DNA of 64,000 bases from Balamuthia mandrillaris. Lineage: Eukaryota. Shown in pieces: positions 2,149 through 61,045 of the stretch. Every line of letters starts with the position of its first letter. The stretch's first letter is position 1. The notes beneath the pieces are model-generated. The model worked only from the letters and a program-made list of their open reading frames with translations, searched no databases and had not been told where the DNA came from. The stretch is taken from positions 124,001 through 188,000 of the forward strand of contig JAVKOQ020000030.1 in NCBI GenBank assembly GCA_031835245.2, given 5' to 3'. The position numbers were made by a program, and so were the translations under genes.

Positions 2149-4013
2149 GACCATATCGAGAATTTTTCACCAAGAAATCGGGGATGTTATCTCCGTTCAA
2201 GTCGGCAGCAGGGGACACTCTTTCGCCATACTCAGACCCCTGATCCGTCCTCGTTAAGTCCACCAGCGCCTTTACGGTTCCGTTGCGATTCAACAACATC
2301 AACCAAACGATTTCTTGTTAACGAAGGCATAGGAACAGCAGTTAGATAAAATAACCACAGGTAAGCAGACCAAAGGATAAACGCACAACGGAACATAACA
2401 ACGAGAAAACAAAACTTACTTGGGTATCCCCAGGTGACAAGAAGGTCGGGAATTTGGTCGTGGTTCCAGTCCATAGATGGACCGAACCGCTCGGCTTCTG
2501 TCAGAGCACCTTCATTTCCGATGTTGCGTATGTTTTCACCGAAGACAATCATTTGGTGGGTGATATTGTTGATCGTAACGAACACAGAGGCATCGTTGTA
2601 TCCGCCATATTCATAAGGGATGTTCAGTAAAGAGTCCTCCACAAAGACGGAAATCTCTTGCATGGCTTTGACAGTGGCGTTTCGGTTCAGGAATAGAATG
2701 AAAACTGCTCCTTTGTTGTCGTGAGCTCTGTCCATCCCGACTGCCAGGTCTGGAATGTTATCTCCATCCAGATCTCCAAGCCCTTTATGTTGCGTAAACC
2801 TTTCAGTGATAAGAAAAAAAAGCAAGAAGTGAACAGAACGTACCGGTAACACTAGAGCCAAACGCATTGGAGTCAGGCGGCATCTCGTCTTCAACATCAA
2901 CCTCTCTTTCCACCCACCATGAGTCGCTTTCCCAACCGTCTCCAATGTCTGGAAAGTCAGAGGTGCAGTTGCTGCAGGAGGAAATGGTCATCACGTCCTT
3001 GATGGTGAGGTCGTTGTTCATGTAGACCACGTAGATCTCTCCTCTGTAGTTATTTTCTCGTTTGGGACAGCTCAAAACGATATCTCCTACCCCATCTCCA
3101 TCCAAGTCTCCCAAAAATCTGCCAGACGAAAATGGTGAGGTTAACGAACTAAAGGAAGAGTTGAAGAAGAACAGGAACGCACGTTAAGTCATGAGGAACA
3201 TCATTGCCGTTCGTATACCATTCAGCGTATTCCAGCTCGGAGAATGGTGAGAATTGGTTCAAAGGAGGTTCCGTAGGAGACAAGATAAGGCGAGCATCGT
3301 TTTCAAAAGTTCCATTGGCGTTCATTGAGTAGATGTATGCTGTACCCAGGTGGTCAGTTGGTTATAAGAGAAGCATTTAATAGGAAACAAACCATAAGTG
3401 CTGCCTTGGTCGGAGGGAGCCACAACTGCCACTTCCAGTTTGCCGTCAGCGTTGAGGTCCGTCAAGGGCACAATCGTTGCACCATATCGAAACATGTAGG
3501 CTTCATAGGGCGAAGCCATGAGCTCATAACTCTCCACGTAGATGGACTCATTAAGAAGGAGGGTCATAACTCCGCCGGAATAGTCGTAGTCTAGCAGAGG
3601 ACAAGAGGTTAGGTACACCTCAGAGATAAAACGAAACGTAAACAGGACCTGATGCGTACCAACGCTTCCCAGGCCAGTGGCGATGCCATGAAGGTCGCCA
3701 TCGACTTGGCCAAGATAACAGGGGGACTGCGGCCAGGCAAAAAGGACCTCCTGTGAAGGTATTCCATTGTTTCTACCGGGACCTATGCTGCGCACCTCCC
3801 CGATGCCATAGTTCAAGTTGAAAAAGCCTTCACCTTCCTGCCCTTGGGCTAAACAAAAAAGAGCAACGAATAACATCAGAAAACAACTATCCAAAGGTGT
3901 TTTGAGCAGAAAAAAAACCAAAAACCAAAAGAGAGCTGCTTACTTGTGGCCGCAAAGGCGAGACTCAAAAGGAGACAAGGCAGCCACCTCCAGACCAAGC
4001 TGCGTGACTGCAT
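1..4013 (-). CDS. Receptor tyrosine-kinase-like protein: signal peptide, FG-GAP repeats, Calx-beta-like domain, TM, kinase (multi-exon; 3' end runs off window)
   Basis: ATG at 4013 gives MQSRSLVWRWLPCLLLSLAFAAT (signal peptide), then a GT-AG intron. FG-GAP-type motifs DLNADGKLEVAV, GDLDGDGVGDIV, GDLDGDNIPDLAVG, DLNGDNIPDFLV. TM VIAPVVVVGVLLVLLVVAIVVAVLLV followed by RSRR. Kinase motifs EIGQG, VAIKKL, HRDLAARN, GPLKWMSPE, SEKSDVW. Confidence 0.9.
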
Positions 4014-4468
4014 TCCCGTACGTCAACGTTGTCCTTGCTCTATGTTAAAATGCGTGGAACGAAAAGTGGTGCTTTTGAGACTGCGTTTCGTTTGCGCAGT
4101 TGGTGCCTTGTAGCTGTATTATTAACCTCTTGGTCACCATGTGCATCACACCCGTATGTAATGGTTGGCCAGGCCATCCGTTCTTTTTAGAGATTTTATC
4201 GCCGAATAACAACCACAAACTCCCCGCTCTAACCAATAGTATAATTCGTTCAGGTCTATTAAACCTATACCTGGCAGGAGCGGTTTTGTAACGCAAAGAG
4301 TTTCGCCTTCATTGAACTGATCTCCGGGCAACCTGTAGCACAATTTTGTGTTCTCACGGTTATAAGCGGGGTAGTTTATTGGACACAACGAATGTGGCCT
4401 GCCTTTCAAAAACCTTTCTAAACCGGAGAGAGAGAGAGAGAGAGAGAGAGGAAAGAAGGGTTTGAGTA

Positions 4469-7400
4469 ATGCGGGGAGTGTCGGTCTTTTGTTGGCGTGC
4501 GGTGGTGGCGGTGGTGATGTTGTCGTTGGCTTGCCATGCCGAAGCACAACGGAAGGTCTCGTGGGGCAACTACTTGGTCTCGCAGGAGCTGTACCTCCGC
4601 GGGAACGACGAGCTGCAGTTCGGGAGAGGGCTGGCTTCGTTGGAGAGCGTTCCCACAGCCCCGGGCTGCCATTTGGCGGTAGGCGCGTACGCCCTGGCGG
4701 ACGTCTTTTTTCATGCCAACGGAACGATGGGAGAGCTCAAGACTTTAGAGCCGGAGAACTCCACGGGGTTCGGGGCGGTAGCTCCTTTGACGGACTTGAA
4801 CGGGGATGGACGGCTGGAAATAGCTGTTACAACGAACGTAGACGGCTGTGCGTATATCCTTGCCTTTTTTTTCTTCTTCTCATGTAACTCACTTCAATCT
4901 CCCGGTCTCTCCGTCGCTGGCTTTCTGCTCCGCTGCGTTCGTACGTGTACAAAAACAAACAAAAAAAAAGATGGAAAAAGCGTGCATATCGGCAGTCAAG
5001 CAGACGACTTCTTCTTCAACACAACAAGCTTCAAGACGTTCGCCATGGACGAACTGCCCTTATCCCGTTTTCCCGTGTTCCAGCAAAGATACAACGCTAG
5101 CTCGCCACGTGCCCCCGATTTCTCTTTTGGAGTCAGCATCACGTACTTGTTTGCTTCATCTTTGTTCTCTGCTCTCTCTCTTTTTCTCCCTTCTTTCTTC
5201 TTTCTCCTCTCTTTCTTCTCATCTCTCTCTTTCTCATTTGTCGTCTCTCTTTCTGCTCTCTCTTTCTCTCTTTCGCTGTCTCTTTATCTTTCTTCTCTTC
5301 TCTCGCTTTGTTCTGTCTCTTTCTTCTCTCAATTCTCCCTTTCTCTCTTCTCTCCTCCCGCTCTCCCTCCCTCCTCTCTCCTCTCTCTTCTCTCTCTCTT
5401 CGCTCCTCTCCTTCTCACTCCGTTATAAAGGTTCGTTGGAGACATTGACAACAACGGTGTTGGAGACATCGCCATTACTGGCGATCACAGAGTACACTCC
5501 AATTCAGGCTCAGCCGTTCACATCCTTTTCTTGGACGAAAGTTTGGATGTTCTCAATGTCAGCACCATTACTCTTGTTCCCGATGACAGTGACTCTGCCC
5601 CATCTTTTGCATCCCCGGATGAGTTGGGATTTCAAGTCGGTTTGTTTGGTACCAGTATTATTGGTATACCTTCTCCTTTGTCTATGTTCTCTTTCTCCTT
5701 GCCCTGCTTTTCTTCTTCATGTTCTTCTTCTTCTTCTTCTTCTTCTTCTTCTTCTTCTTCTCAACTCTTATGTGAAATTGGGTTCCAAAATATACCAGGG
5801 CTGGGCGACTTGGATGGAGACAACACACCAGACATGGCAGCAACAGCACGAACAAACATGATCGGCTACTTGTTCATCTTGTTTCTCACGCCGGATGGCG
5901 GCGTCAAAGACTATCGCGTTCACACTTCGGATGCTGCCTACCGTCCATCTGGAGCCCTTGACTTTGGTTGGTTCGGTGCCAGCATAAAGAGCATGGGCAA
6001 CGAGGCGGCCTTGACGGAAGAGGAAAGGTTTTCTTCTGCTGACTTCAACAATGACCATTTCCCTGATTTGGTGCTTTATGAAGATGGAGAGGGTCCGTGT
6101 TATTCGTGTTCCTTTCTTCTGCTACTTCTTGTTCTTGTATTCTCTCTCTTTCTATCACGCTTGTGTTTAAACTGCTTTTCGTTGTACAGGAGATGTGTGG
6201 TTACTCTTTTTGGACAGTACAGGTAACATAACTGGAAATATGTACTATGGCATTTCTTCTTCTTTCATCGCTATGGCATCAGCAGTGTTCGATGCCAACG
6301 ACGATTCCATACCAGACGTTGCTATAGCCAATATGGCTGGAGGTGTCTTTCTTCTTTCTCACCCTGTCGGAAACGCTTTTTCTGAACTTGGTTTTTCTTC
6401 ATATGCAGGCAGTATAGCTGTTCTATTGATGGATGGTATTCGGATTACCGTCACATCTGCAACTTTTGAGGAGACAGGCGAAGAAGAGCAAGGCAATTCA
6501 GGGTTACAGCAAACACTGGAGTTGACGGTCACATTTGAGGTAAAACTGTCAGCCAAACCAGAGTTTGGCATTGAGGTGGAGTTCGAAGTGGAAACGAATC
6601 TTGCAGAGGAGGATGTGGTGGTGTTGTCCTCTTCTCCTCTAAAGTTTGAACCTGGACAGGATTCCGCTACCGTTCAGCTGTCAGCAGTTGTACCTGCTGA
6701 ATTGTTTGGTTTGTGTTTCCCCAGTCATCTCTCTTCCTTTTTTTGGTTTGTTGTGGCTTTTGTCGCTGACTGGCTCACTCATGGGCAGACCAAGCGAGAG
6801 GGAAAAGGAAGCAAGAGGAAGATCCAACTGTGACTTTGGTGCTGAAGTCAGCTATGAATGCTCTCGTGAACAACAGCAACCCATCTTTCACGTTAGCGTT
6901 GATAAAGCCGGGAGATGAAAGTTCTGAAGATAAAGAAGGCGATGATGAAGATCAAACTAAAGTGATTGTGCCCATCGTTGTAAGTGTTGTGGTGGTACTG
7001 CTGGCATTTCTGGTAGCCATCGGAATTGGAGTTTGGTGGCGACGACGAAGAATACAAAAGATTGCTGACGCTAAGCTGATGGAGATGGAATCGCAGTATG
7101 GAACACTTGAAGCTGGCGGTGACCGCAACGATGAATCAGAAGACGAAGAGGAGGAAGAAGAGGAGGAGATAGAAATGGAGGTCAGAGACCACTGGGAAAT
7201 CTCGTATGACGAGTTGAAGTTCATTCGAAAGATCGGCGAAGGGTACGCACTTACTGCTTCTCATTCTGTTTGCTTGTTCGTTCATTTCTTTGTCTAAACA
7301 ATTTCTTATTTTGGTCGCTACCTCAGTGCTTCAGGGGAAGTGTGGAAAGGAATGTGGAGGAACTCTCCAGTGGCCATCAAGAAACTACACACCATGGATG

Positions 7401-15972: not shown

Positions 15973-17898
15973 ATGATGTCGCTGTTGGATGAGTTGTTAG
16001 GTTCTATGGACCAGTTGATCGAAGGGCGGGTGGACGAAATCAAGGTGGACAACAGCGTTCATGCCGGACCCATGCAGAGCACCATGGCCCAAGATGCCCT
16101 GGAGAAGCAGAGGAAGCAGCGGAAACAGGACACGGAGCTCACTCGCTTGCAGCGGAAAGCCAGGGAGGAGCAAGCCAAGGTGACGCGAATGGAGGAGGAG
16201 AGAATTGCCCGAGTGAACGCTGCGCAGGCGGCCATCAACTCCATGTCAAGGAAGAGAAAGGAACCGGACATGACACCGACGCTTGCTACTTCCTCGTCTT
16301 CTACTCCCTCATCTTCTGCACCTCAACAACAACTTGTAGAGAAGAAACCGCGACTCTCTTCTACTTCTTCTTGTTCTTCTTCTTGTTCTTCTTCTACTTC
16401 TGCTTCTACTTCTTCTTCTTCTTCTCTTGCCCTTTCTGCTGAACACCTGCTTTCTTCACCTTCTTCGTGTACTTCTTTGCCAACTCCTTTCGCTACCTCT
16501 GGATTCGCTCCCGTTGTACTAGTTACCACTCTGCAAGGTTTTTTGCTCTTTCTCTTCCCTTTCGTTTTCTCCACTGTTCTATTCCCTCTTTCACTTCTCT
16601 CTCTTTTGTTGCTCTCTTTCTCCTTCCTCTCACTCTCCCCGTTGCACTTCTCCTTCTAACAACGCTCTATAGAATGCAAAGCGGCAGTGAAGGAGCTTCA
16701 ACAACACAAAGTATTGGCAGTGGATTGTGAAGGCGTTAACCTCGGCCGAAACGGTCAGTTGACGCTCGTTCAAGTGGGAACAGAGGTCAAGGTCTTTCTC
16801 TTCGACCTATTGGAAAGGGGCATGCCTCCTCTTTCTCCTTCTGAACTTCTGCATACAGACGAAAAAGAACCAGACCCAGAACCAGAGCAAACGCAACCGA
16901 GCACAGAAAAGGGAAAAGAAGAACAGCAAGAAACAAATGAAAAGAAAGAAGAAGAAAATGTAACAGAAAAAGAAGAAGAAAAAGTAAAAGCAGCAGAAGA
17001 AGATAACCGATGGAAAGAAGGCGAAAAGGACAAAGCAGATACTTTCTTTGCAGAAGGCGGCCTGAAAGCGCTCCTTGAAGATGAACACATCCTCAAAGTC
17101 TTTCATGACTGCCGCGGAGACTCAGACGCTCTCTTCCACCAATTCCAAGTGGCCCTTCATCCTGTCTTTGATACACAAGTGGCTTACGCAGTGGCCAAAA
17201 GACAGCAATTCTCACAAACGCCCATTCCAGTTTCTCTCAACACGTTGTTGCGGTTGTATGCTACTCCGTTGGTGGAAACACAGCAAAAGAAGAGAGAGGA
17301 GAAAGCAAAAGCAGAGAAGAAGAAGCAAAAGGTAGACAGAAGACAAACGAAAAGTGAGTATGTGGAACGACGGAAACGAAGTCAGTTGCGGGAAGTAGCA
17401 AACAATTATTATCAAGCTCTTCAAGAAGAAAACGAACAAGAAGAAAAAGGGGAAAAAGAAAAGGAGACAGAGACAGAGACAGAGGAAAACAAAAGAACAG
17501 ATGCGTTGAATAAGTTTAAAGAAGCAGCGAAAGAGTGGATGATCAAAGACAAGTACTTTTGGAAAAGAAGGCCGATGACAGAGTTGCAATTGGGATATGC
17601 TGCGGAGGACGTTCTCTTCTTGACGTTGGTCCATCGACAGTTGAACTCCATTTTGGACTCGAACAACCGAAAGTTGGTGGCTTCGTTATCGGAAAAGTAT
17701 GTTAAACAGGTCCGAGATGCACAAGATATCAAGGTTTGTTCTTTCTTCTTCTTTTTCTTCATCTTCATCTTCCTCTCCCTTCTTCTTGTTCTTCTTCTTG
17801 TTCTTCTTCTTGTTCTTCTTCTTGTTCTTCTTCTTGTTCTTCTTCTTCTTGTTCTTGTTCTTGTTCTTCTTCTTCTTTTTGTTCTTGTTCTTCTTCTT

Positions 17899-17929
<31 letters not shown>

Positions 17930-18126
17930 TATTACTTATTTTGCTTATTTTGCATTTCTTTCTTATTTTTTGTCGTGTCTTTCGTTCTGTTCTTCCTTTC
18001 CTCATCGTTTGCAACGAACAGGACCAAATACGATTCGAAGATGGGGTACCAAAATACGGTTTTAGCGTTTGGGATAAAGACGTAGAATCCACATTAGCTC
18101 TTGCCAAGTACAGACAAAGAAGGTGA
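15973..18126 (+). CDS. 3'-5' exonuclease, DEDDy family (EXD1/Egalitarian-like), multi-exon
   Basis: ExoI VLAVDCEG, LTLVQVGT, ExoII KVFHDCRGDSDAL, FDTQVAY, SLNTLL, WKRRPMT and ExoIII YAAEDV. Introns at about 16538-16672 and 17734-18021. Confidence 0.88.
17740..17930. repeat. (TTC/TTG)n intronic microsatellite
   Basis: Visible trinucleotide array inside the last intron of the exonuclease gene. Confidence 0.95.
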
Positions 18127-18243
18127 ACAACAATGCTGCCAAACGAAAGAAAACAAGGCGTAAGCATGCGTTTTCTTATTGTGTGTGTTCAATGTTTTCC
18201 TGTTCATATATACATCAGCAAAGTCTAAACAACAAATTACAAG

Positions 18244-19024
18244 TCAAACGCGGAATGAGGATGCATGACAGGTGCCAATCGGCAGGTACGAAGAAGAAGC
18301 AGGAGGAGAAGTCGCTGAAGGCCATCCATGATCCTCTTGGGCTAAAGCCACTCGAATGGGAGGCAACACCTCTCGTCTAGGAACCACTGGCGAAGGCATC
18401 AAAGGAAGTGCACTTGGCGTCGTCGTTGGCTTTGTAGATGGGGAGAAGTACTGCCTTGTTGGCTGTTGTTGGAGTCTTTTGTCCACGTCGAAAATGAGTT
18501 GGTGGTAAAACTGCCTTTCAGCCACCAATTCGCGGATGAAGTTGACCGCCTCCTCCAAGATTGTTCTTTTGGAGGAGGAGGGCGAGAGGTTAGGGGTCAG
18601 CTGCTTGAGCTCCTCCAACTTGGCGTTGAATATCAACTTTCTTTTTCGCTCCGCTGCGTTGTGTTTTAGCTTCTCTGCTCCACTTTTTTTTGTTCTCAAC
18701 GTTAGCACCTTCCCCAAAAAAAAAAATGAAAGGGAAAGAAAGTAGATGAACAACAACAACTCAAGTTGAAGTGAAAGGGTGCAAGCGTTGAGGCGAACGA
18801 ACGTACACTCTTCGGATTGGCACTCTCTTTTTGGGGGGAGATTGCTCCCTTCTTCTGGGCAGGGGAGGCGGAAGCCTGCCAGAAAAAGCGAGGGCGTCGT
18901 TGCCGCAGAGGCTGCCGTTTCCGGGTGGACCGCCAGCCCCATCCAGGTCGCTGCCCTCTCGCCTCGAAGAAGGAACCGGGCTGCGGTTGCCGTTGGAATC
19001 GCGCGGTAAGGCCGTGTGGGGCAT
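18244..19024 (-). CDS. Myc/Max-like bHLH-zipper transcription factor, paralog 1 (2 exons)
   Basis: Exon 1 MPHTALP...RVPIRR; exon 2 GAEKLKHNAAERKRKLIFNAKLEELKQLTPNLSPSSSKRTILEEAVNFIREL. Confidence 0.88.
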
Positions 19025-19762
19025 TTTACGGTTTTTATTTTTTCAACTCTGTGTGCGGCCGTGCTGTAAGGGGTTGAAGCGATCCCCCCCAAAAAAAAAC
19101 ACAGAATGATAAAGTTAGCCCCGCAACGCCAATGTAACCACACAGCCAGAATCAATCCTGCCGGTCAAACCTCCTGGGAGAACGAAGTATTTGCGTGCGC
19201 ATCCGGTCCCCGCCACGCTAACTTCCGGAGGAAAATTCTTTGAAGGCAAAACGTATCATGAGTTCATTAATTTGACGTGATCAGGGTCGGCATTTTATGA
19301 CCAAAAACGAATGCTGGGTCACCTGAAAACGTTCCTTAAAAAGGCAATTGGACGGAATTAAAACCAGATGAAAGGAGATAATTAATATAACAGGTAATTG
19401 ATTAACTTTTTTTGGATATGAAAAAAGCCGAGCAGGGAAAAGCGGGGGAAACTTGAGCGAAGACTCGTGGCTAACCGCCCGTGTACCTAACAAAGAAAGC
19501 AAAGAGCAGCGCCACCTCTCTTCGAGGAAGAGAGCGCTCTTGTATGGATGTTGTAGCTATTCCCCCTCCACCTCACCCTTGCAAGATTTTTCTGTACAAC
19601 AGGGCGGGGACGCAGCGCTTCGCGAAAGGAGAGCACAGCAGAGAGGTGGATCAGAAATGGTCCTTGTTTGCCCTCCTGCGGCTCAGAGGCTCAGCATGTC
19701 TGTTTCCGGCGTGTATTAACAAGAAACAACCCTTTTATTGCGATGCTGCTCCATTTGTTGTA

Positions 19763-20425
19763 TCAAACAAGGCGATGAGAGAAGGAAGGAGGAGGCAACG
19801 AAGCAGGCCAGCCACCGCTTGCCGGTTGAGCCAGAACGTAGCGAATCGGAGGTAACACCTCCTTTCTTGCTGGTAACGGCGGCGGCTGAGGTGGGCAAGG
19901 GAAGGGACCCCTGGGTTGCTGCTGTTGTCTCAAGGCGTAGTCCATGCTGTGGATGAGCTGAAGCTGAACTTGTCTTTCGGAAAGCAGCTTTTGGATGAGG
20001 CGAGCGGCTCCCTCCACCACCTTCCTTTTGGAGGCTGGGGAGTGGAGCTCAGGGATCAGCGCCCGGAGCTCCTCCAACTTGGCGTTGAAGAGCATCTTTC
20101 TCTCTCTTTCGGCCGCATTGTGTTTTATCTTGGCGATTCCGCTGACGAACCAAAAGAAAAAGAACCAGTCAACACATCATAAAAAGGCCTTGTGTAAGAA
20201 CAAGAAACAGAAAAAGAAGAACAACGAGACGCACATCCTTTTAACTGGTATCCGTGCACTTTTAGTCCGCGTCCGAGGCAGCGGAGGGGGCAATCTGCCC
20301 TCGCCGGTAGTGCTCGCCACCCTGAAGGTGGACATCGCAGGACCATCCCGAGTCGCATCAGGAGGAACACCCTTCCTGCCCTCCTCCTTCGAGGAGCCAC
20401 CCTCCTGCTGTTGTCTGTGTGGCAT
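19763..20425 (-). CDS. bHLH-zipper paralog 2 (2 exons)
   Basis: Exon 1 MPHRQQQ...RIPVKR; exon 2 GIAKIKHNAAERERKMLFNAKLEELRALIPELHSPASKRKVVEGAARLIQKL. Confidence 0.88.
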
Positions 20426-21021
20426 GTTATCGTTGTTGTTAACAACAGAAAACGAAAAAATAAACGAGGAAAGAACAACGAGCTCTACATGAAACATGTA
20501 AAGGTCATACAAGAGCAAAGAAGAAGTTGCTGAAAGAACCGGTCCTCTTGCAGAAGACCAGCGGGTCCACAGCGGCAGGAACGCAGTGCGCACAACAAAA
20601 AAACAACACAGGAAAAAAAAATAAGGAAAAGAAAGGAATGTCGTAGGAGTTCTTCAGCACTGCAGTACTCTCTCAGGTCGATCTACAACCTGTTTCGATC
20701 ATGGAGAGCAGAGAGGAGGTGATCATGGCTTTAGTCAAACGAAAGCGGTGTGTGACATGTGAGGACCCGTAGGACCGTCATTAGCAAAGCAGCAGTGGTT
20801 GAAATAACAGAAAAAAAAAACAAACTTGTTGTTTGTTGAAGGAAAAAAAAAGAGAAGAGCTGTTGTTTTGTTTTTATTTTCACGTGAAGCGAGATAAGAA
20901 GCAGCTGACTGATAGAACCTCGCGAAAACAGATATAGTGCAGAAGGGACACGTTTCCCTTTTGACCGATAGAGCGGCTGCACAGACCAACCCCAAAACTG
21001 TGCCAAGGCCCTGGTGATTGA

Positions 21022-21719
21022 TCAGTGCCAAAAAGGATGGGACTGTACTGAAGGAGCATTGAAACGGGTTGACGGGGGTGCTATCTGAGACAGGACCACA
21101 TGAAGCGGCGGAAGAATGGGGAAAGGCGGTGAGGCCGTACCAGAAAGGTCCGCTGGTGTGGTCGTTGGTAGAAAGAAGTTAGGAAAATGCTGGTGTTGTT
21201 GTGCGTGTCCTCCATGTGGATGACACAAAAGTTCGATCCTTTGGTCCATGTTCTGCGCGAGCTGGCGGTAACTGTGGCACTCGGAAAGCAACTCATGAAT
21301 ATGGCCTATTGCTCCCTCGACGATCTGTCTCTGGGAAGCCAGTGGCGGAAGGTCTGCCAAGAGCCTCAGTTCTTCCAGCCTTGCATTGAACTCCCACTTT
21401 CTTTTTCGCTCCGAGGCGTTGTGTTTGAGTCTTTCTAGTCCTCTGTTTACCCTCAAAGGTACAGTTAGAGGAAACAAAAAAAAGGACGTAAAAATAAATA
21501 AAGGTCTGTTGCAAGACGGCAGGGGCCACAAGAGACGTACATCCTTTTTCTTCTGGATTTCGAAGCTGGCATGAAAGCTGCTGTTCGCTTTCGAATTTTC
21601 CTTCGCAGCGCTCCGTCGCTCTGAGCGCCCTTGAGCGAGCGACCTTCCTCAGAACCGGCTTTCCGGAAGTCCTCCAAATCTTTGTCTCTCTCATCGATAA
21701 CAAGCACTTGTGGCGGCAT
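21022..21719 (-). CDS. bHLH-zipper paralog 3 (2 exons)
   Basis: Exon 1 MPPQVLV...SRRKR; exon 2 GLERLKHNASERKRKWEFNARLEELRLLADLPPLASQRQIVEGAIGHIHEL. Confidence 0.87.
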
Positions 21720-21940
21720 CGTGTACGTGGTTCGCGGTGTGTCGCGTTGGTTTGAGATAAGCAAAGAAAAAGAACGCAGTCTATCTAGTATTGGCCATTT
21801 TACCAGGCTACCGCATGACCAGGAGGGGAAAAAAACAAAAACTGGAGCATAAACTGTCAATATAGTCGGGTAAGTCGGCTTAATAAATGATACGCCCGGA
21901 AAGTGTTAACCTTTTCTGCGATTTTGTATCAGGAGTCTCT

Positions 21941-22093
21941 TCGCCAGCATTGTATCTTTTCTATCTCTCTTCCGTTTCTTGAAAAAAATATAGGAGACGG
22001 AAACAACTAACCTTTTCAGAGTTTTGTGGCTTCCTGAGTAGACCAAAAGCTTTCAGCTGCCCTCGCCAGCATTGTATCTTTTCTATCTCTCTT
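21941..22093. repeat. 31-bp direct repeat between bHLH paralogs 3 and 4
   Basis: TCGCCAGCATTGTATCTTTTCTATCTCTCTT at 21941-21971 and 22063-22093. Confidence 0.85.
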
Positions 22094-22187
22094 TCATTGG
22101 AAAACAAGAATGACCTACACAAGAGCTTGTTTTGTAACCAAAGAATAAAAGTTGAGAGAGAAACATGAACACGGAATCCAAATGCTA

Positions 22188-23024
22188 TCATTGTTGTGTG
22201 GTGTATGATTGTTGAGGTTGGGGCTGCTCCAAATCGTGCTCTCGGGTTTCCTTCCTGCCTCTGTTCCTCAAAGCTTTCTCAATGAAGAATACGTGTGAGG
22301 GTGGTATGTCAAGTGGCGGGAGGTCATTTAAGTTTTTTGAGGTAGATTGCATTTTATTTGAACTTTTTTGGTGCAGTGTCAAGCAAGAGGAGGAGAACTC
22401 ATGAGACAGCACCACATGCAGAGGAGGTAAAATCGGAGCAGGGCATCCATTCGCTGATGCAACCGGAGACTGACGATACACGGAATGTTCTGGGGGACGC
22501 AGATGATGTTGCACGCGTGATGAAGGTAGATGTTGGTTCTGCAAGGCATGCGTGAAGCTCCGTTCCATGTCCCGTACCTTTTGCTGGTGCAACAGGTGCT
22601 CTGTTTGGAGCTCCCGAATGTGTTGGGCAGCTCCTTCTACCACCTGTCGTTTGGTGGGCGAAGGAGGTAGGTCCGGGATCACGCAGGCCAGTTCTTCCAA
22701 CTTGGTGTTGAAGACTAACTTCCTTTTCCTCTCGGAGGCATTGTGTTTCAACCTTTCAACTCCCCTGAGCAAACATCAAGTTAGCGCTAAACGAAATGAG
22801 AAAACACAAACAACAAACATTCTTTTTGTTTTGGAAGGTGTTGTCTTCTTCAACGCCCTTCTACCCCGCAGATCATTGTTCAAAGGAGTGACAGCTTTGT
22901 GAAGCCTTTGCAAAACGTTCCTGATGTGCTTCTGATTTACCTCCTCCGTGGTGGCGTTCAAGGCAGGAACCTCAAGGTGCGCCTGCCTTCCTGCAAGATC
23001 CAGAGGACCGGAGTACATGGCCAT
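22188..23024 (-). CDS. bHLH-zipper paralog 4 (2 exons)
   Basis: Exon 1 MAMYSGP...SKTKR; exon 2 GVERLKHNASERKRKLVFNTKLEELACVIPDLPPSPTKRQVVEGAAQHIREL. Confidence 0.87.
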
Positions 23025-23862
23025 GGTGGATGGTTTCTGTGTTGCCTGAGCAAAACTCAACGGCAAAACGAGGTTACCCTTGCCGAAAGAAAGGTTTGTT
23101 TCTCTCCTGAAGCAAAATGAACAAAGCTGGTCCACGGTCAACCATTCGGTAAAACCAAACTCGGTTTTGATGGACTTGGGGAGATAGGTGCTCTGAGCGA
23201 AAGCGGCAGCGCTGAACTGGGACGTTGCGGATGAACACACCAAATGGCCTCCTGCGGTTTGACCTAATCTACAAACGAGAAAAAGGCTCGCATCCAGAAG
23301 CAGGCTACCTCACTACATCTCGTCAGGGTCCGGGAGGGTCCAGCCGTTCGCGTTCCCATCGCCTATGTTCTACCACAGTTGTGGGTGAATTTCCATATGC
23401 AGGGATCGCGACGGTGACGAGAGCAGCACCTAATCGGTGGGTCGCAGGCGGATGGCGCGAGCGCCGCCAACCCTTCAACCTTCACCACATTCCCAAATAG
23501 CTCTGCCCCATCAAACTGTTTTTGTTTTTTTGGTATAAACCGCACGCTCGTGAGAGGTGCTTTTTGCATGCATGCCTGAAAAATGGATAGATGATTGTGC
23601 TTTTGGCATGCATGCCCATAAACGGCACTTTACAAAGTTCCGCGCCATACCGTCGTCCGCCGCGAACAGCGTCCGTTGGACCGCATTGGCTCAGGGGAAG
23701 ACCAACGGAACGTCTACAAAATTTTGGATTGGATCTCACGGAAACATCATTACTTATTGATTTCTGATTGGTGGTCAATCTATAGATCAACCGTAGCTAA
23801 TCGGCATTCCTCGCATTGCTGGCGTAACTCGAAATGAGAAAGAAAGAAAGAAAGAAAAAGGA

Positions 23863-24264
23863 ATGGAGGGCCGCGGCGGAAGGAAAGGGAGCGTTTTCAC
23901 GATACCGTCCGCCCGCCAAAAGCTGTTCTTTTGGCTCGGCGTATCTTTGCTGTTCATCAATGAGTTGCTGCGGTTCCAAACAGGACGGCGGCCTTCTTCG
24001 TCACTTCGCCCCAATTCTTTGCTTACACCATCATCACCCACCACGCTGAGAGAACGCGAAACGGAGCACCGATTTAATCCTCCAACTTGTTCTTCTTCTT
24101 CTGCTTCATTCTGGAATAGCCTCATCTCCCTCGCTCGCTTCTCGCTGGTCTCTCTGTGTATACTCTCGTTGATCGCCAATCAGCTCTCCCTCAGCTACTG
24201 CAGCGGTCACACCGTCCTGTCCGCTTTCCTCACCTGGCTCACCTCCAAATTCATCGAACGAGAA

Positions 24265-24301
<37 letters not shown>

Positions 24302-24576
24302 TCTCTCTCCTTCTCTCTCCTTCTCTCACTGCAAAATCTAATCCAAAACAACACAGATATATTCCTTCCCTAAGGCTGTTGGAATGGGCGCTTCGGTGGG
24401 ACCGGATCTGGTTGGAGGAAGGGCATCCCCTCTTGGCCAGCAACTACTCCAACCTGGCCGTCGTTTGCACGCTGTTGCATCGGCACCGCGCCGCCGCTCT
24501 CTACTCCAGGCGTTTGGCCGACCTGACGGCCACCCCTGCTTGGAAGTTATGGAGCCATAAAAGACAGCTCAAATGA
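23863..24576 (+). CDS. Small hydrophobic protein with C-terminal TPR-like motif
   Basis: 237-aa ORF that includes an in-frame (CT)n intron at 24267-24356. LLEWALRWDRIWLEEGHPLLASNYSNLAVVC resembles kinesin-light-chain-type TPR. Two hydrophobic segments. Confidence 0.55.
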
Positions 24577-24617
24577 TGATAGAAGAGTCTTTTTTAGCGG
24601 AGAGAGAGAGAAAAGGA

Positions 24618-24649
<32 letters not shown>

Positions 24650-24781
24650 AGCAACAAAGCAGGAAAAATGTGAGGGATGAGAGAAGGAAGAACGAAGATG
24701 GCAGAATGAGGAAAGGTTGAAGATAGTTCGAGAAGCAAGCAAACAACAAGAGATACTCTTGTTGTCGTGTTGGATGCTTAT

Positions 24782-26426
24782 TTAGAAGTACTGATGCCGA
24801 AGCCGCCGCCAGAAGGGCGTCTTGAAAAAGGCAACGAGAGACAACAACAAGACTAAACCAAGCAACAACAGAAAGTGCATCGAGGGCATTGGCAATCTGT
24901 TTCGAGGAGAAAGGCGTGACGAAGCGTGATGTTGTGTTGTTTGTTGAACTGTTGATCCCTCTGATAGTATAAGAACGTACTTTACCTGTTTTTGGTATGT
25001 AAGAAAGAACATACAGAAGAAAGTTGAAGAAAGCGGAACGAAGAAGGAAACGAACCCGAACGTGGTCGTTGGTTTTTACGACGATGTACTCTTGCGGAAG
25101 ACCTTCTTGATCGCTTCCTCTCAGGTGATCTCTGGAGTTGTTTGTTACTCTGGCCACAAACTCAGGATCGTGCACCACCTCACAACCAACCATGGCTCCA
25201 ATCTTGCCGCCAAACATGCTGTTGGGCCAGTTTAGGCCGAAACTCAAAAAATTGGTACAAACCACCGGATCCGTTGATAGATAGATTCCTAGCCAGAAAA
25301 CACATCAGATAAGGAGAACAAACAAAAATAACAAGAAGAGAAGCAGACAGAGAAGGAGACAGTTGGGAGAAGAATCTAACCATCTCCATATAAGTTGCGA
25401 AGATCTTTGTTGAACTTGATGTCAAGGCCGGTGTGAAGAATGGAATGAAAGTTCTCGAGAGAGCTGGCATGAAACGCCACGCTTGTCTCAAAGTCTTTGG
25501 CCAAAGCGTTAAACCGACGCGATGACACTTTGGCCAAAGATGCCACATCCAAAGGAATGGCTGCATTGGTGTTCCTTTCTTCTCGTTCCTTCGCTTTTTC
25601 TCGTTCTTCTTGTTCTTCTTCTCCATCATCGTTGTACTGAAGTTCAAAAATATGTTGTGGGGTAATGCTGTTGTGGGTAAGTTTGGTTGTAGGTCGATGT
25701 GGAGTGGAGGTTCGTCGTTCGAACTCTTTGTGAGATAGGTTGACCAAACGAAAATGAGCAGCTGGGTTACAGAGAATCCATCGCAATAGACAAAGAGATT
25801 TGTATGGAAGTTGTGCCACAAGATCTGCAAAAGAGCAGAAATAGAGAAAAATAAAAGAAGACCTGATAAGCAATAGGGTATTCAATAAAAAAGAGGGACG
25901 GTGAAGAGGAATTTCACGAACTGGGATCACTTGCGAGCTCATGGATAGGTGGTAGGCTTTGAAGCATAGTTTCCTGAAAGGGTAAGAAGAAAACAGAGAG
26001 AGAGAGAGCATGAGAGAAGAGTGAGAGAACGAGAGGAGACTAAGAAAGATAGGAGAGACGATCATATAAGCGTTGAAAAGTGGGGAACGAGCCTTACCAG
26101 CTGTTCAAAGTCACGTTCCCAGCGGCAAGAGCGAGAAGGCGATGAAGAAGGAGAATATGAAGAGCCACGCTCGCCTTGTTGTTGTGGACGACGACAAAAC
26201 GGCGGGAAAGGGATGCAAATGGTCGCTCGCCGATAATGCGTAGCAGCTGAGTAGAACAAGCAGAGCAGCAAGTCGCAACAAATCGGACTGGTAAGCAAAA
26301 AAAAAAATGAAGAAAAAATTGGTTTAACTGAAACAATTCAAAAACTTTTTTGTTAAAAAAAAACCTTTCAGCAAGCTTTCCACAAATCGCATCGATAAGC
26401 TGTCCTTTCCCTTCATCTGCTGCCAT
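24782..26426 (-). CDS. PARP16: PARP16/ARTD15-like tail-anchored mono-ADP-ribosyltransferase, multi-exon
   Basis: DLLLCLFYSAATHYRRATICIPFP (N-terminal helical domain), AFHASSLENFHSILHTGL, LYGDGIYLS, GCEVVHDP, PQEYIVVKTNDHVRVKYVL, and C-terminal TM FLLLLGLVLLLSLVAFF plus basic tail. Confidence 0.88.
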
Positions 26427-26575
26427 CCTTTCTTGCTCTGGACCAGAGAAAAGCATGTTAAGAATGCAAGTTCTTCAAATTCTTTTCATACTCCAATGTT
26501 TGAATTTAGATTGGTAACCGATGTACGATTATCTACATATGATCTACATCGGATTTTTTTTTTTCCCTCTGGCCA

Positions 26576-27128
26576 ATGGCGTTCCATCGCCTACACACGT
26601 TTCTGTACGGAGTGTGGAACAGCTCTCTCTGCTGGCACTTCTTCTTCAACCAGTTCTTCTTCTTCTTCCACTGTACGCTCTTTTTTTTAAAAAAAAATGG
26701 TTTCCTTCTTCTCAAAAACTTTAATCGTAACTCTAAAAACAAAACAGACAAAGAATGAATGGCTGGATGACTACTTTCGTGGCAACCTCTCTTCGGCTGG
26801 AGAGCAATGGACGTACCGCAACGGCGTGGTGACCTGCGTGTCAGGCTTCAAGGCCTCCAACGTCGAGTTCCAATGGAACGGACACGAATTGATCTGTTCT
26901 GCTTCTTCTTCTTCCTCCGCTGAAGGAGGTGGCGGTGCCTATGGCAAAGGCGTTTGGAATGGTGGCAGCGGAACGGCCGAGTGGTACTTCCCCGAGGACC
27001 CCTCCACCCCCTTTTGGAGGATGACCTGGCAGAAGGGGAGGCAACGCTTTCAAAACGACTCGATCCGGTGGAGGTCCCCTGTCCACTGGACCTGGAGTGA
27101 GAACAAAGACAATGGAAGTGGCGTGTAA
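26576..27128 (+). CDS. Hypothetical Trp/Gly-rich protein (exon structure uncertain)
   Basis: GC-rich coding-like exon at about 26753-27124: WTYRNGVVTC, FQWNGHELIC, GKGVWNG, AEWYF, WTWSE. It ends at a GTAAGT donor, so the gene probably continues. Confidence 0.5.
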
Positions 27129-27576
27129 GTTGAGTAACAGTAAGGTTGTTTTTTTTTTAAGTTCATTCCATCCACTTTTTTGGGGCAGGTATGGACGAAT
27201 CGGGGATCCACACATCGGGAGACAGGATGTACACAGGTGGGAAGCTCCATTCCCGTCTTTTTTTTTCCATCTGGCCAACCCTCCTAAAAACCAGCTATCG
27301 GCAGGAAGCACCGCTCGTTTCACCACTCCTCCCTTTGGAGCATTCCAGGAATGTGTTTCTGATAAGCTGCGATCCAAGAGGATTCTGGGCCTCATCCCGG
27401 TTGTTGGTTGCGATGGTACTTTGACCGACTACCAGTTTTTTTTTTCCACGCTCGTCGTTCTTTTGTTTTTTTTTTATCTTACCACACACTTACGCACTCT
27501 AACAAACGCTGCCATGAGGCCAAGCACGCATTTTAGAGCAAGTAGGGAACCATTTCTGCTGGGAGACGCCATCCCC

Positions 27577-28219
27577 ATGCCGCTACTGCAGGGCGCAGCT
27601 CTTCCAGAAAATGAAAGAAAGCCACGCATACCCTTTCCTCTGGAAGGAAAAACTAAAACAACGAAAACAAAAAGAAGGTTCGTGTGGTTTCTCTGTCTGC
27701 CCTGCCGGTGGCGTTTGCTTTTTAACAATTTTATCGCTGCTGTTTTTCCAATATTTCAGGGGTTGGGAAAGGCTGAAGCACAACGCATCAGAGAGGAAGA
27801 GGAAGTTGGACTTCAACATCAGGCTGGAGGAACTGAGACGGCTGACTCCAGGCCTGCCTCCAAAGGCCTCCAAAAAACAGATTGTGGAGAGAGCGACATT
27901 AGTTCTCCAAGAGCTTCTCTTGGAACGCCAGCAACACCACAAACTCATTCACAACATGGAACAGAGGCTCTTTTCCGAAGCGCAGCAACAACCACTGCAA
28001 CTGCAACCCCCGCCATCCTCCCCATTGGTGCATCATCCACGTTCTCCATTTTCACGGCCTGCACCAATCCCTTCCTCATTGTTTCCAATCCTGCCACCCC
28101 TGCCCGTAGCCTCGACAGGTCCTCTCCCACAAGCATACCGGCCACCTTCCCCTTCACCAACCCCCTTGTTGGCTTGGGGGTTGATTTTTTGTATGCCTAT
28201 AATTAAAGCTTATAAATAA
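27577..28219 (+). CDS. bHLH-zipper paralog 5 (2 exons)
   Basis: Exon 1 MPLLQG...TKTKR; exon 2 GWERLKHNASERKRKLDFNIRLEELRRLTPGLPPKASKKQIVERATLVLQEL. Start could be 27513. Confidence 0.86.
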
Positions 28220-28524
28220 TTAAGGTTCATTTCCCGTAAACAGCAAAGCATTCCGGCCGGGATTTTTCATTCCGGGGAATAAATGATCACGCCAATCATT
28301 GCAGCAATACTGCCGAACGAAATCTTCCGTAGGGGGATTTCCCGCGTGGCCTGCAAATTGGCAGCACCTTTGCTAACTATTGCAGAAAAGGAATATTCCT
28401 TCAAACTCCCAGTTTTAAGGTGTAACCGAGTGTCAACGGCAACTTATTTTTGTTTTGTTTTCTTTTTCTTTTTTCTGACTGTTCCCGAACAGACACACAC
28501 ACGCCACGAGCGCAATTAACAATT

Positions 28525-29134
28525 ATGCCGCCACACAAACCGACGGCTCCAACGACGGAGACAGAGCAGGATTCTTCCTCTGCTGACCATTTTGCCAAGC
28601 TAAGGACGGGTTTCAAACAGCCTCGAGCAAAAGCCAAAAGAATGTTCGTTTCTTGTTCTCTCATGCACTCTCGTCTTTTTTTTAAAAAAAATTTTCTGTG
28701 ATCATTTACTCCCAATCTGCAGGGGAGCTGAAAGGTTGAAGCACAACGCCTCCGAGAGGAAACGAAAGTTGGAGTTCAATACGCGGCTCGAGGAGCTGAA
28801 ACGCCTGACTCCAAACCTTTCTTCCACGCCCTCCAAACGAGAGATCATTGAATCAGCTGCTCACTTTATCCAAGAGCTCTTGACGGAACGTGCCTATTAT
28901 CGTCAAGTCGTCACAAACATGGAACAGAGGTTCGCACTCGCCGAGCAGCACCAACGACATGAACATCAACTCCTTCAACAGTTGCAAAAAGCTTACTGCT
29001 CACAACCTCCGCCACCTCCCCCTTCGGCCGTCCTTCCTCCACTTCGTGTGGCCTTGTCTCAAGAACTACACCCATTTACGTCTGCTTCTTCCTACCCTTC
29101 CTATTCTGCTGCTTTCTTTCAGGGTGGAAAATGA
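28525..29134 (+). CDS. bHLH-zipper paralog 6 (2 exons)
   Basis: Exon 1 MPPHKP...AKAKR; exon 2 GAERLKHNASERKRKLEFNTRLEELKRLTPNLSSTPSKREIIESAAHFIQEL. Confidence 0.88.
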
Positions 29135-29403
29135 AAACTCCAAAAACAAAACAGCTGTGCATACTTGTTAAAAATTCAATTGTTCATTTAAACAAAAAAA
29201 GGCTTCCTATCTCGACTATGGTACTCTCGACCTGGTCTACGGAGCCACTTTTTGGTTTTGAGCACACCTGCCTTCCACCAGCCAAAAACTAAAAAGTGTC
29301 TGGCGTGGGTTGTCACCCCGCACATCCCCGACCGATTCTTCGTAGCTGGTCGCCCATCGCTCTTTTTTTTTATATCGCCACTGCTCCATAACACACACAC
29401 TCC

Positions 29404-30040
29404 ATGCCACAGCCTCTCCAAACACAACCACTGGAAGACCCAACGATGGACGACCAGACAAATGAGATGTCTTCTCCAACGCAGAGTCCCAACCAAACGG
29501 CCAGAAAACCAAAGAGAATGTACGCCCGGACTACTCTCATTTCTCTCTCTCGTCTCTCTTTCTTTCCGTTGACAATATGTTTCTTAACCATGCAGAGGAA
29601 TCGAAAAGTTGAGACACAACGCTTCAGAGCGGCGAAGAAAGCTGTTGTTCAACACCAAGCTGGAGGAGCTGAGAGGCTTAGTGCCCAATCTTCCATCCTC
29701 CTGCTCCAAACGGAAGGTGGTGGAAGGAGCTGTTGACTTGCTCCGGCAACTACTTTCAGAACGTGAATACTACCGCCAACTCGTTAACAACATGGAACAC
29801 AGAACGAAAGCAGCCCTCTTTCAACAACTTCAACAAAGGCAAAAGCCCCCATCTCTGAGCCGTCCTCCTCCCCCTTCTTCTTGTAAAGAGACACTGCCCC
29901 CTCTAAGGTGTGTTCTGCGACTTGAATCTCCACACGTCTGGGCTCTCACACGCAGTGCTTCAACTGGTGTTCCTTCCCTCCCGCATCAAACTGACTTTCT
30001 TCCTTATAGTTGGCACCGTCAACAGCCTAGCGTGGAATAA
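29404..30040 (+). CDS. bHLH-zipper paralog 7 (2 exons)
   Basis: Exon 1 MPQPLQ...RKPKR; exon 2 GIEKLRHNASERRRKLLFNTKLEELRGLVPNLPSSCSKRKVVEGAVDLLRQL. Confidence 0.88.
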
Positions 30041-30073
30041 AAACCAATAACAGAAAGTAACAGGGAGAGAGAG

Positions 30074-30123
<50 letters not shown>

Positions 30124-31014
30124 TAAAAGAAAAGGTCCACGACGGAACGCCAGTTCGCGATGATAAACAATCATGACGTGAATGGTCAACATGGACATTA
30201 TTTTGCTGCTCACCAACCCTTTGTGGCACTACATTATTGAAAGTTGAAACCTCTCGGCAAATACGCCATGCCTCAACTCCAAGTTAACTTGTCAAGGTAA
30301 AGGTTTTTTTGGTTTGGCGTCCGGCCGCTTCAAGAGGAGAAAAAGAAATCTCAGCGGCACGACCCGGCCACACCTCAGGGATGATGCCACTTTGCCTGGA
30401 TGAACACACCACCATTCCTTCCTTTTCCTTACTACCTCACCAGCAGAATAAGGTCTGCCAAGCGACGGGAGGGGGGTCGGCCACGCCAATAATAATAAGT
30501 CCTACGGGTGGACAATTGTTAATTGTTTGTTTGCCTCTCTTGCGCTGCATTGTTAATTTGGTAAGTATGTGACAAAAATTTTCCGTACAAAGAAAAAATG
30601 ATTCCTAACATTTCCATAAAACGAAATAATGATGCGTAACATCAATATAAAAGGAAAAACGGGACAGCGGCAATTTTCACAAGGAACATGTGGCATGCAG
30701 CATTCATTAATCAGGTCGTTGAATGGAGCCGCGATTCGTCGCCGTTCATCTTACCGTGGATGCATTCGTCAGCCCACGGGTCCGCTTGCGCTTGCGGTCA
30801 ACTGCTTGGTCAACCCGTCCGAAACGTGAAACAGCTGGGCTACCCGCACTATCTTTCCTTTTCGCCACCTGTGAGGGCGGGTCGTTCGTTTTTCTTCTGC
30901 CCTTTGGTAACATTGGGCACACCGCGGTGTTTCAGCAAAACAGGACCAACCAATCTTGCTGGTCGACTGCAGACGTCCCTTTTCTACGAAACCAAGGGAA
31001 GCAAAAAAAAAAAG

Positions 31015-31726
31015 ATGCCACGACCCAAGACGCCGCCGGCGGTAGACCAAACGGTCACTGTAGATGAAGGCCGGAACAAAAAGTTGTCCTCTGCTTTTGT
31101 AGGCTATTCGCCGAGCAAGCCTGGGGAGGACGACCTCCCTCCTTCTCCTTGTAAAAACAGTCTAAAGCTCCCTCAAAACGACTTAAAGAAGTCGCGCAAA
31201 GCCAAAAGAATGTACCTGTTATCCTCTTATTTTTCTTCCTTTTGTTTAGAGCCTTTGCCAACACCATGTTTTAATACCGTGATGCAGAGGTTTCGAAAGA
31301 GCGAAACACAACGCCTCAGAGAGGAAAAGAAAGCTTCACTTCAACGCCAAGTTGGAAGAGCTGCGGGTCTTGATCCCCAATCTCTCTCCTTCTGCCTCCA
31401 AAAGACAAATCTTGGAAGGGGCCATTGGGTTTCTGCAACTGCTTCTCGCAGAACGTTCTCACTATCAACAAAATCTTCGGGACGCCGAACAAAGGTTTGT
31501 GCTTGCTTTGCACAACCAACAACAGCAACAACAACACCAACTGCAACAGAGTTGCTTGGCTCGACCTCCCCTACCATCCCCTGCGCCTATTGCTATTCCT
31601 TCGCCTTCTTTTCCCTCCGCTTCTGGTGGAATACTTCCACCGCTTCACGTTGTGTTGTCTCAAGACTGTGCTCCCTCAATGTCCTCTTTTGCTCCATACC
31701 AAACCACGTTTTGTGAAAGACAATAA
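31015..31726 (+). CDS. bHLH-zipper paralog 8 (2 exons)
   Basis: Exon 1 MPRPKT...RKAKR; exon 2 GFERAKHNASERKRKLHFNAKLEELRVLIPNLSPSASKRQILEGAIGFLQLL. Confidence 0.88.
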
Positions 31727-31989
31727 ACACAACATAGTCTCAACCAACACATCGGCTGCCTTCATTGTTGGTCAACCAATAGTGGCGCCTTCCCTTCTTT
31801 CTACCAGGGAATGGAACCCGGCTGCATCCTGGCGCAAGAGGGTTTGTTGACATCTGGGAATGCGTTAACTGATTATTATTATTATTTCGTGGAAGCATCC
31901 TTAGTTCTTCTGCTTTTCTTCTTTTTTCTTGTTTCCTTCTTTTTCTTTGTCTTCAGTTCTTTTTCAAGTTCGTTCCTCCCCCTTCATCC

Positions 31990-32096
31990 TTCTTCTTTAT
32001 TCTTCGTTCTTTTCTTCTTCTTCTTCTTCTTCTTCATCTTCTTCTTCTTCCTCTTCTTGTTCTTCTTCTTGTTCTTCTTCTTGTTCTTCTTCTTGT

Positions 32097-32135
<39 letters not shown>

Positions 32136-32607
32136 TCTTCTTCCTCTTCTTGTTCTTCTTGTTCTTCTTGTTCTTCTTGTTCTTCTTCTTGTTCTTCTTC
32201 TTCTTCTTCTTCTTCTTCTTCTTCTTCTTCTTCTTCTTCTTCTTCCTCTCTTGTGCTTCTTCTTCTTCTCTCTCTCTCTCTCTCTCTCTCTTTTGCTTCT
32301 TGTTCTTGTTCTTGTTCTTCTTGTTCTTGTTCTTGTTCTTGTTCTTGTTCTTGTTCTTGTTCTTGTTCTTGTTCTTGTTCTTGTTATTCTTCTTGTTCTT
32401 GTTCTTGTTCTTGTTCTTGTTATTCTTCTTGTTCTTCTTCTTGTTCTTCTTCTTGTTCTTCTTGTTCTTCTTGTTCTTCTTGTTCTTCTTCTTCTTCTTC
32501 TTGTTCTTCTTCTTCTTCTTCTTCTTCTTCTTCTTCTTCTTCTTCTTCTTCTTCTTCTTCTTCTTCTTCTTCTTCTTCTTCTTCTTCTTCTTCTTCTTCT
32601 TCTTCTC
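31990..32607. repeat. ~600-bp compound (TTC)n/(TTCTTG)n/(CT)n microsatellite
   Basis: Directly visible; lies upstream of the GH99 ATG. Confidence 0.97.
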
Positions 32608-32700
32608 CGCTCTGCTTTTTTGTGGACAGACTTTCCTAATAACTTTTTGGAAACAAAAAGAAGAAGAAGAAGAAGAGGAGCATGTTAGTTGGGCGGATGA

Positions 32701-59514: not shown

Positions 59515-59588
59515 GTCCTTCCCAGCATAGAAAATAACTGAAATATCTGGAATGATTTTCGTTCCTTCACTCTGCATCGACATAACAT

Positions 59589-59633
<45 letters not shown>

Positions 59634-59675
59634 AGAGTGTCTCTCATGACCCTTCGTATTTACAGTACAAACAAT

Positions 59676-60952: not shown

Positions 60953-61045
60953 GTCCTTCCTTCTCCTCACCGCACCGTTACCTGGCTATAATGAATATAT
61001 AGATCATTTAGGAAACTAGTAGGTTCATTTCTCTGCTTAGAATTG

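Follow-up and report, generated by a model that had tools for sequence, protein, structure and literature searches.

An array of eight Lys13 bHLH-zipper genes in Balamuthia mandrillaris: a candidate repressor family

We analyzed a 64-kb stretch of the Balamuthia mandrillaris genome (contig JAVKOQ020000030.1 of assembly GCA_031835245.2, forward-strand positions 124,001-188,000), which we call the window; all coordinates are positions within it. The window contains eight two-exon genes for basic helix-loop-helix (bHLH)-zipper proteins, four on the minus strand (g1-g4) and four on the plus strand (g5-g8), on either side of a PARP16-like gene and two unknown genes. To judge from their sequences, the eight proteins are not members of the Myc, Max or Mxd families. 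The genes appear to stem from the old expansion, under selection, of a single divergent bHLH-zipper subfamily that has lysine at basic position 13. We tentatively favor, with slightly less than even confidence in the whole chain from dimer to DNA to repression, the idea that they encode a lineage-specific repressor family with altered E-box reading, which arose by old tandem duplication. That the products form functional DNA-binding dimers, leaving the repression step aside, seems far more probable.

The eight genes and their bHLH-zipper domain

The gene set was read on both strands. A first reading of this DNA from its letters alone (the sequence-only reading) had proposed eight genes with named starts, open frames and a phase-2 intron at a common position, and gene modeling bore out all of these points. 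All eight ATGs are present. After removal of a single phase-2 GT-AG intron of 54-124 nt, which is placed directly 5' of the invariant Gly that opens the bHLH, the frame is open through HN.xER in each copy. Exon 1 ends in KR or RR, as had been read, followed by a single additional amino acid (I, M, V or R). A Met-Pro start is indeed common, but probably occurs in six rather than seven copies, since g5 likely starts at an in-frame ATG at 27514 with a leader similar to those of g6 and g7. Seven of the eight models match NCBI Balamuthia mandrillaris proteins (QOT17_004947-50 and QOT17_004955-57) or, in the case of g2, an isoform that has additional N-terminal residues and includes the whole 189-aa model. 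The acceptor of g1 is the AAG at 18683, a small correction to the earlier model that gives 218 aa in agreement with the NCBI protein. The g5 product itself was not found in the protein collection in two protein searches, though the gene is intact. The accessions run from ...294 (QOT17_004950) to ...297 (QOT17_004955), which leaves two proteins for four locus tags; therefore, the public annotation between g4 and g6 likely lacks g5 or mis-models it. No ninth copy or remnant was found in the window by tblastn and nhmmer.

The bHLH identity of the products was upheld by Pfam HLH, which scored above the cut-off in seven of the eight proteins and just under it in g3 (19.1 versus 20.7). The bHLH consensus given in the sequence-only reading held except in g3, which has SQR in place of SK(R/K) and a one-residue deletion. 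The AlphaFold model (pLDDT 93.7) consists of a helix at 2-28, a loop and a continuous helix at 38-85. Its top fold matches are Myc-Max and Mad-Max entries (best 1nkp_E, TM 0.72, E 7.8e-3; none with E below 0.001). In a PDB sequence search, the eight best matches were all Max (best E 1.6e-8), and Mad was weak (E 0.012). The zipper extends helix 2 and has hydrophobic d and a positions over about two heptads, so that it is shorter than that of Max; the first a position is Arg, His or Cys and the g position before it is Glu. Given the conserved hydrophobic core and this two-heptad zipper, the products likely dimerize among themselves.

Group B bHLH proteins are defined by His at basic position 5, Glu at position 9 and, in Myc, Max and Mad, an invariant Arg13 by which the central CG is specified (PMC8431614). 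His5 and Glu9 are present in 8/8 proteins and Arg13 in 0/8. Assignment to Myc was rejected: the bHLH begins at 18-34% of protein length, in the N-terminal third and not at the C-terminus as in Myc, none of the eight proteins contains a Myc box pattern, and Pfam Myc_N and Myc-LZ gave no match in ten proteins. The Mad1-type Sin3-interaction (SID) pattern was found in 0/8, which speaks against Mxd or Mnt membership. Myc and Mxd are obligate heterodimers with Max, and no Max orthologue was identified in Balamuthia. Orthology with Max was also not accepted, because the domain tree places the family in its own clade (support 97*) and leaves the link to Max as an open fork. Thus, of the label "Myc/Max-like" in the sequence-only reading, Max as the nearest solved fold stands and membership does not. 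Group A (MyoD/E47 type, with Arg8, M/L/V/T at 13 and no zipper) was ruled out by Ser or Ala at position 8 and Lys at 13. Group E (Hes/E(spl)) was ruled out by the absence from the eight of a basic-region Pro, Arg13 and a WRPW tail.

Tail motif and lysine at basic position 13

A tail motif and Lys13 had escaped the sequence-only reading, as had the dispersed paralogues described below, and the first two change its interpretation. The C-terminal tails are rich in Pro, Gln and Ser and otherwise poorly alignable. However, seven of the eight share the motif [IVT]LPP[LI][RH]xxL, which is degenerate in g5. The full motif occurs in 9/10 family records versus 0/140 other matches. When the eight tails are shuffled, LPP[LI] is expected in every one of them with a probability of about 5e-13, a value that assumes independent copies, which they are not. 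The motif resembles the repression domain of yeast Mig1. This domain comprises 24 residues (481-504), DSQVQELETLPPIRSLPLPFPHMD, and contains ETLPPIRSLPLP; one co-repressor binds Mig1 (PMC10163088, Table 2 for the motif). The g7 tail has ETLPPLRCVL and a JGI protein outside the array, P0017, has ILPPLRSLQMPLP; both are near-identical to TLPPIRSL of Mig1. Therefore, the tail motif is likely a repressor motif, and target genes would likely be repressed by co-repressor recruitment through it. It is rather unlikely that the motif is a docking site for a co-activator or for a factor of turnover or localization, and that the proteins are activators or short-lived regulators with the same family history. 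A Pro/Gln/Ser-rich tail around the motif is typical of activation domains, and conservation of the motif shows only that something is bound, but the sole characterized look-alike that we found is the mapped repression domain of Mig1.

In an ungapped alignment to Max, position 13 is Lys in 8/8 proteins (basic region HNAsERKRK versus HNALERKRR in Max). The residues H5, N6, E9, R10, R12, K13, F16, L20 and L23 are invariant across the eight. Among 144 matches parsed (150 listed of 173 found), residue 13 is Arg in 130 and Lys in 14, and 10 of the latter belong to this family. The further Lys13 proteins P0052, P0067, P0082 and P0116 fall outside its clade, which suggests that the change arose more than once. 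In Max, the same Arg-to-Lys change (R36K) lowers E-box affinity more than 30-fold (PMC5389568). In HLH-1, changes of residue 13 shifted specificity and did not abolish binding; Lys was not among the changes described in the part of that report available to us (PMC3113581). In view of these studies, the dimers likely bind a CANNTG E-box through His5 and Glu9, with its center changed or relaxed, and the preference for CACGTG is predicted to be weakened in the eight. The spacers show no enrichment of CACGTG (1 versus 0.89 expected). Autoregulation through E-boxes was considered and not accepted: CAGCTG occurs 4 times versus 0.9 expected (p 0.014, family-wise 0.074), and all CANNTG 22 times versus 19.9. 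The mild excess of CAGCTG does not suffice for naming a binding site.

The effect of Max R36K also fits the idea that the Lys13 proteins are poor DNA binders which, as Id proteins do, act mainly as dominant-negative partners and titrate canonical Arg13 bHLH proteins. We consider this quite unlikely. In g3, Gln moreover replaces the helix-2 Lys at the position of Max R60, the equivalent of R60Q, which reduces the binding of Max (PMC5389568). Canonical Arg13 bHLH proteins do occur in amoebozoans (P0046 of Arcella intermedia). However, H5, N6, E9, R10 and R12 are invariant in 8/8 despite saturated synonymous sites, and the basic patch ahead of the basic region has a net charge of +7 to +10; neither is expected of non-binders. 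Furthermore, the 20 proteins looked up, a minority of the matches, included no Arg13 partner from Balamuthia.

Duplication history, selection and transcription

In the domain tree, 11 family rows form the clade described above and the eight array genes form a sub-clade within it (support 87). The tree was built by a quick method from 75 rows, thinned from 145 at two per basic-region signature, with 80 columns and without P0164. The lineage-specific clustered family proposed in the sequence-only reading is supported. Three further Balamuthia records of the family, P0008, P0009 and P0164, lie on other contigs. P0008 fell among the array genes in the first protein tree and outside them in the domain tree. 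P0009 and P0164 (QOT17_012589 and QOT17_013529) are dispersed paralogues with nearly the same sequence; they lie on different contigs and may be alleles. P0164 carries an in-frame insert between RR and G, at the intron site of the array genes, which is therefore likely a retained intron. P0017 shares G.EKL.HN, Lys13, Phe16 and the tail motif with the family. Because the genome-wide copy number comes from protein searches, it is a lower bound. A domain search with P0017 returned only itself among 83 candidates, and a search with P0009 only itself and P0164 among 25. The 20 proteins looked up, out of 150 listed and 173 found, included no Acanthamoeba record. A domain search of the Atlas gave only generic HLH clusters, under 0.9. 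Two metagenome scans for relatives matched 475 and 401 stretches, of which 0 were confirmed.

Within the eight, only the pairing of g1 and g2 is well supported (99/97*). For the mirror pairs, the p-AU values are 0.045 (g1+g8), 0.063 (g2+g7), 0.35 (g3+g6) and 0.38 (g4+g5). Together, the value for g1+g8 and the support for g1+g2 disfavor duplication of an inverted four-gene block. Monophyly of the left and right blocks has support of only 40/75. The two-way layout is likely a record of duplication, in which one inverted copy across the island was followed by tandem copies on each side.

Identity between copies is 47-62% for the domain, 19-41% for the N-terminal arm, 26-47% for the tail and 31-46% overall. 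The spacers have only short stretches in common (21 nt or less). An assembly artefact was rejected on the basis of these identities in the domain and overall, and because no similarity between spacers exceeds 21 nt. In the domain, mean pS is 0.71 and mean pN 0.28; pS exceeds pN in 28/28 pairs, and 8 pairs are saturated. A codon model of the 68-codon domain gave an omega of 0.21, and fixing omega at 1 lowered lnL by 70. The near-saturated synonymous sites and the low omega indicate that the duplications are old and that the copies have been maintained. Thus, neutral evolution of the copies, which the sequence-only reading had named as a refutation, was not borne out by the comparison of paralogs. 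A pseudogene array was likewise rejected: frames, splice sites and stops are intact in 8/8, omega is 0.21 and there are no remnants in the window.

Transcription was examined by mapping of reads from a different strain to 17600-24200, the g1-g4 side. Run X5 gave 53 reads and run X6 gave 68 (from 3-5% of each run), X7 gave 0, and X1 may be DNA. Coverage falls mainly on g1-g3; it is nil in several spacer bins and near zero on g4. The g3 intron is spliced exactly (junction 21442>21541, CT..AC; 6 reads from 2 runs). The g2 intron is kept in some reads and in an X1 contig, so DNA or unspliced RNA contributes. Thus, part of the array, g1-g3, is transcribed. The same reads show strain variation in g1-g3: 8 synonymous and 6 replacement changes in domain codons, 3 and 14 in the arms, and no stops or indels listed. 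These small counts come at low depth from 35 of 40 listed places, 32 of them coding (31 codons), and 2 further places are not in the list. At 18454-18520, variants occur in about 55-65% of X5 reads, as expected if this strain is heterozygous or has another g1-like copy. Read ends are loose at 20513 and 21172, which hints at structural variation from strain to strain.

The sequence-only reading had proposed a combinatorial or temporally ordered switch, for example in encystment or stress. In such a switch, gene order or the two arms would set the order of expression, and heterodimers would specify programs such as encystment. Synonymous sites have become saturated while the eight copies remained side by side, zipper e, g and a positions vary among these copies, neighbors differ in read depth (g4 versus g1-g3), and TTGACCG lies upstream of 5/8, a feature picked post hoc. 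However, every copy has the same core DNA-contact residues, so heterodimers are not expected to read different core sites. Three family records are on other contigs, the housekeeping-type PARP16 gene sits inside the array, and tandem duplicates stay clustered by default. The switch is therefore not supported, and its chance is slim. A wider form of the idea seems equally improbable to us, namely that a Lys13 protist class outside groups A-E reads another E-box center, that the Mig1-type motif predates fungi, and that an E(spl)-like complex gates the trophozoite-cyst switch by sequence or dimer combinations. With the same contact residues throughout, the copies likely have targets in common and are distinguished by promoter, N-terminal arm and partner. 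Most likely, the time or dose at which a single set of targets is regulated would vary from copy to copy, and the copies would not form a code of different sites. As an observation in its own right, TTGACCG is found at -144 in g1, -117 in g4 and -93 in g5, and in reverse at -213 in g8 and -535 in g2. Its distance and orientation are similar at g1, g4 and g5; it was chosen post hoc from all 7-mers and is a lead only. The TTGACC within it is W-box-like.

It is very unlikely that the genes are largely redundant or decaying duplicates of which one or two work and the rest drift: g4 is almost uncovered by reads, g5 has a degenerate motif and was not found in the protein collection, g3 is under the Pfam cut-off and the arms gain replacements at about neutral rates, but intact frames, splice sites and stops in all copies, the omega and pS values and the lack of remnants or pseudogenes in the window speak against it.

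Several points weigh against our proposal of a DNA-binding repressor family. Repression rests on a resemblance of 5-7 residues between very distantly related organisms, a search of the Atlas for the motif region returned no usable match, and g5 has lost half of the motif. Cyc8-Tup1 is the partner of Mig1. Among amoebozoans, Dictyostelium may have homologues of this complex, which a literature listing did not confirm, and a co-repressor of the tail motif in Balamuthia is hypothetical. The Max R36K data could equally signify weak or no DNA binding, and g3 may be further affected by its Gln at the Max R60 position. The tree does not resolve the order of duplication beyond g1 and g2. RNA support is thin, with 53, 68 and 0 reads, g4 almost uncovered and the g2 intron kept in some reads.

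The coordinates of the array and island genes are given in Table 1. The PARP16 identity assigned to island gene 2 in the sequence-only reading was confirmed: ARTD15_N scores 40.2 bits versus a cut-off of 26.3, a PARP domain was found, and PARP16 is the sole PDB match (2/2 sequences). Long, low-complexity GAA/TTC-rich tracts at 17735-17940 and 31970-32610 border the array on both sides. The g3-g4 spacer (21941-22093) contains a 31-nt exact direct repeat, 122 nt apart. Elsewhere in the window, two divergent actin-family open reading frames lie in tandem at 58171-60985 on the minus strand (Pfam Actin, about 327 bits each). FG-GAP repeat genes in divergent orientation, one adjoining a kinase fragment, are found at 2235-6223 and are candidates for integrin-like receptors.

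Table 1. Genes of the bHLH-zipper array and its central island (window coordinates)
Gene	Position	Strand	Product	Intron	Tail motif	Protein records	Remarks
g1	18244..19024	minus	218 aa	18683-18806	VLPPIRVAL (LPP starts 18366)	P0004, QOT17_004947	RNA reads
g2	19763..20425	minus	189 aa from Met-Pro ATG	20142-20234	VLPPIRYVL	P0007/P0158, QOT17_004948	sister of g1; reads
g3	21022..21719	minus	199 aa	21443-21540	ILPPLHVVL	P0006	intron spliced in RNA reads
g4	22188..23024	minus	260 aa	22765-22818 (54 nt)	ILPPLHVVL	P0005, QOT17_004950	hardly any reads
Island gene 1	23953..24576 (approximate bounds)	plus	small protein, hydrophobic stretch, weak TPR-like end				Pfam TPR_12 E 2.9e-4, below cut-off; reads over 5' part
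Island gene 2	24788..26300 (approximate bounds)	minus	PARP16/ARTD15-like, hydrophobic C-terminal tail				
Island gene 3	26500..27128 (5' bound approximate)	plus	CxxC zinc-ribbon-like start, Trp/Gly-rich exon of no known family				Zn_Ribbon_1 E 0.023, weak
g5	27514..28219	plus	207 aa from ATG 27514 (186 aa from 27577)	27678-27759	ILPPLPVAS (degenerate)		
g6	28525..29134	plus	176 aa	28644-28722	VLPPLRVAL	P0002, QOT17_004955	
g7	29404..30040	plus	186 aa	29520-29595	TLPPLRCVL	P0001, QOT17_004956	
g8	31015..31726	plus	211 aa	31212-31287	ILPPLHVVL	P0003, QOT17_004957	

Comparison with known systems

Tandem duplication of transcription factors is itself an ordinary kind of event. Small bHLH paralogues also form clusters or have undergone lineage-specific expansion in animals, as in the Drosophila Enhancer-of-split (E(spl)) and achaete-scute complexes and the nematode REF-1 family, so the array by itself is not new in kind. 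What is new is that Lys13 is fixed and is combined with a Mig1-like tail. Which E-box center a bHLH protein selects depends mainly on residue 13, and in Max the change from Arg to Lys at this position is a known damaging variant of myeloma. A family in which purifying selection has kept Lys13 therefore offers a natural test of the recognition rule for this residue. If the tail works like that of Mig1, a fungal-type repression signal would extend into Amoebozoa. In a full-text literature search, which is weak for subscription journals, we found no publication on Balamuthia bHLH proteins or this array and no description of gene control in Balamuthia; the one paper that mentions both B. mandrillaris and helix-loop-helix proteins is on Naegleria, and none of five terms for amoebae and protists occurs in PMC3782479. 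For this organism, a single-celled amoeba, the complex of eight transcription-factor genes provides named candidate regulators.

The proteins are like Max in their small size, His5 and Glu9, short loop and a zipper that extends helix 2. They differ from Max in Lys13, Phe16, the shorter zipper, the long Pro/Gln tail with its conserved motif, the separate clade and the eight clustered copies. Mxd, Mad and Mnt are bHLH-zipper repressors that use a short co-repressor motif, and thus are a functional analogue of the repressor family proposed here; in contrast, the motif of the array proteins is C-terminal and proline-led, and a Mad1-type SID is absent. Mig1 is a zinc-finger protein. Its TLPPIRSL resembles the tail motif by homology or by convergence, and the last Leu of the motif comes one residue later in the array proteins. 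E(spl) proteins repress, with partial redundancy, and have a co-repressor motif at the C-terminus. Unlike them, the array proteins have no WRPW, Orange-domain match or basic-region Pro, do have a zipper and belong to a unicellular amoeba. By analogy, the eight proteins are likely repressors that would work like an Mxd- or E(spl)-type repressor set, while belonging to neither of these nor to Myc or Max.

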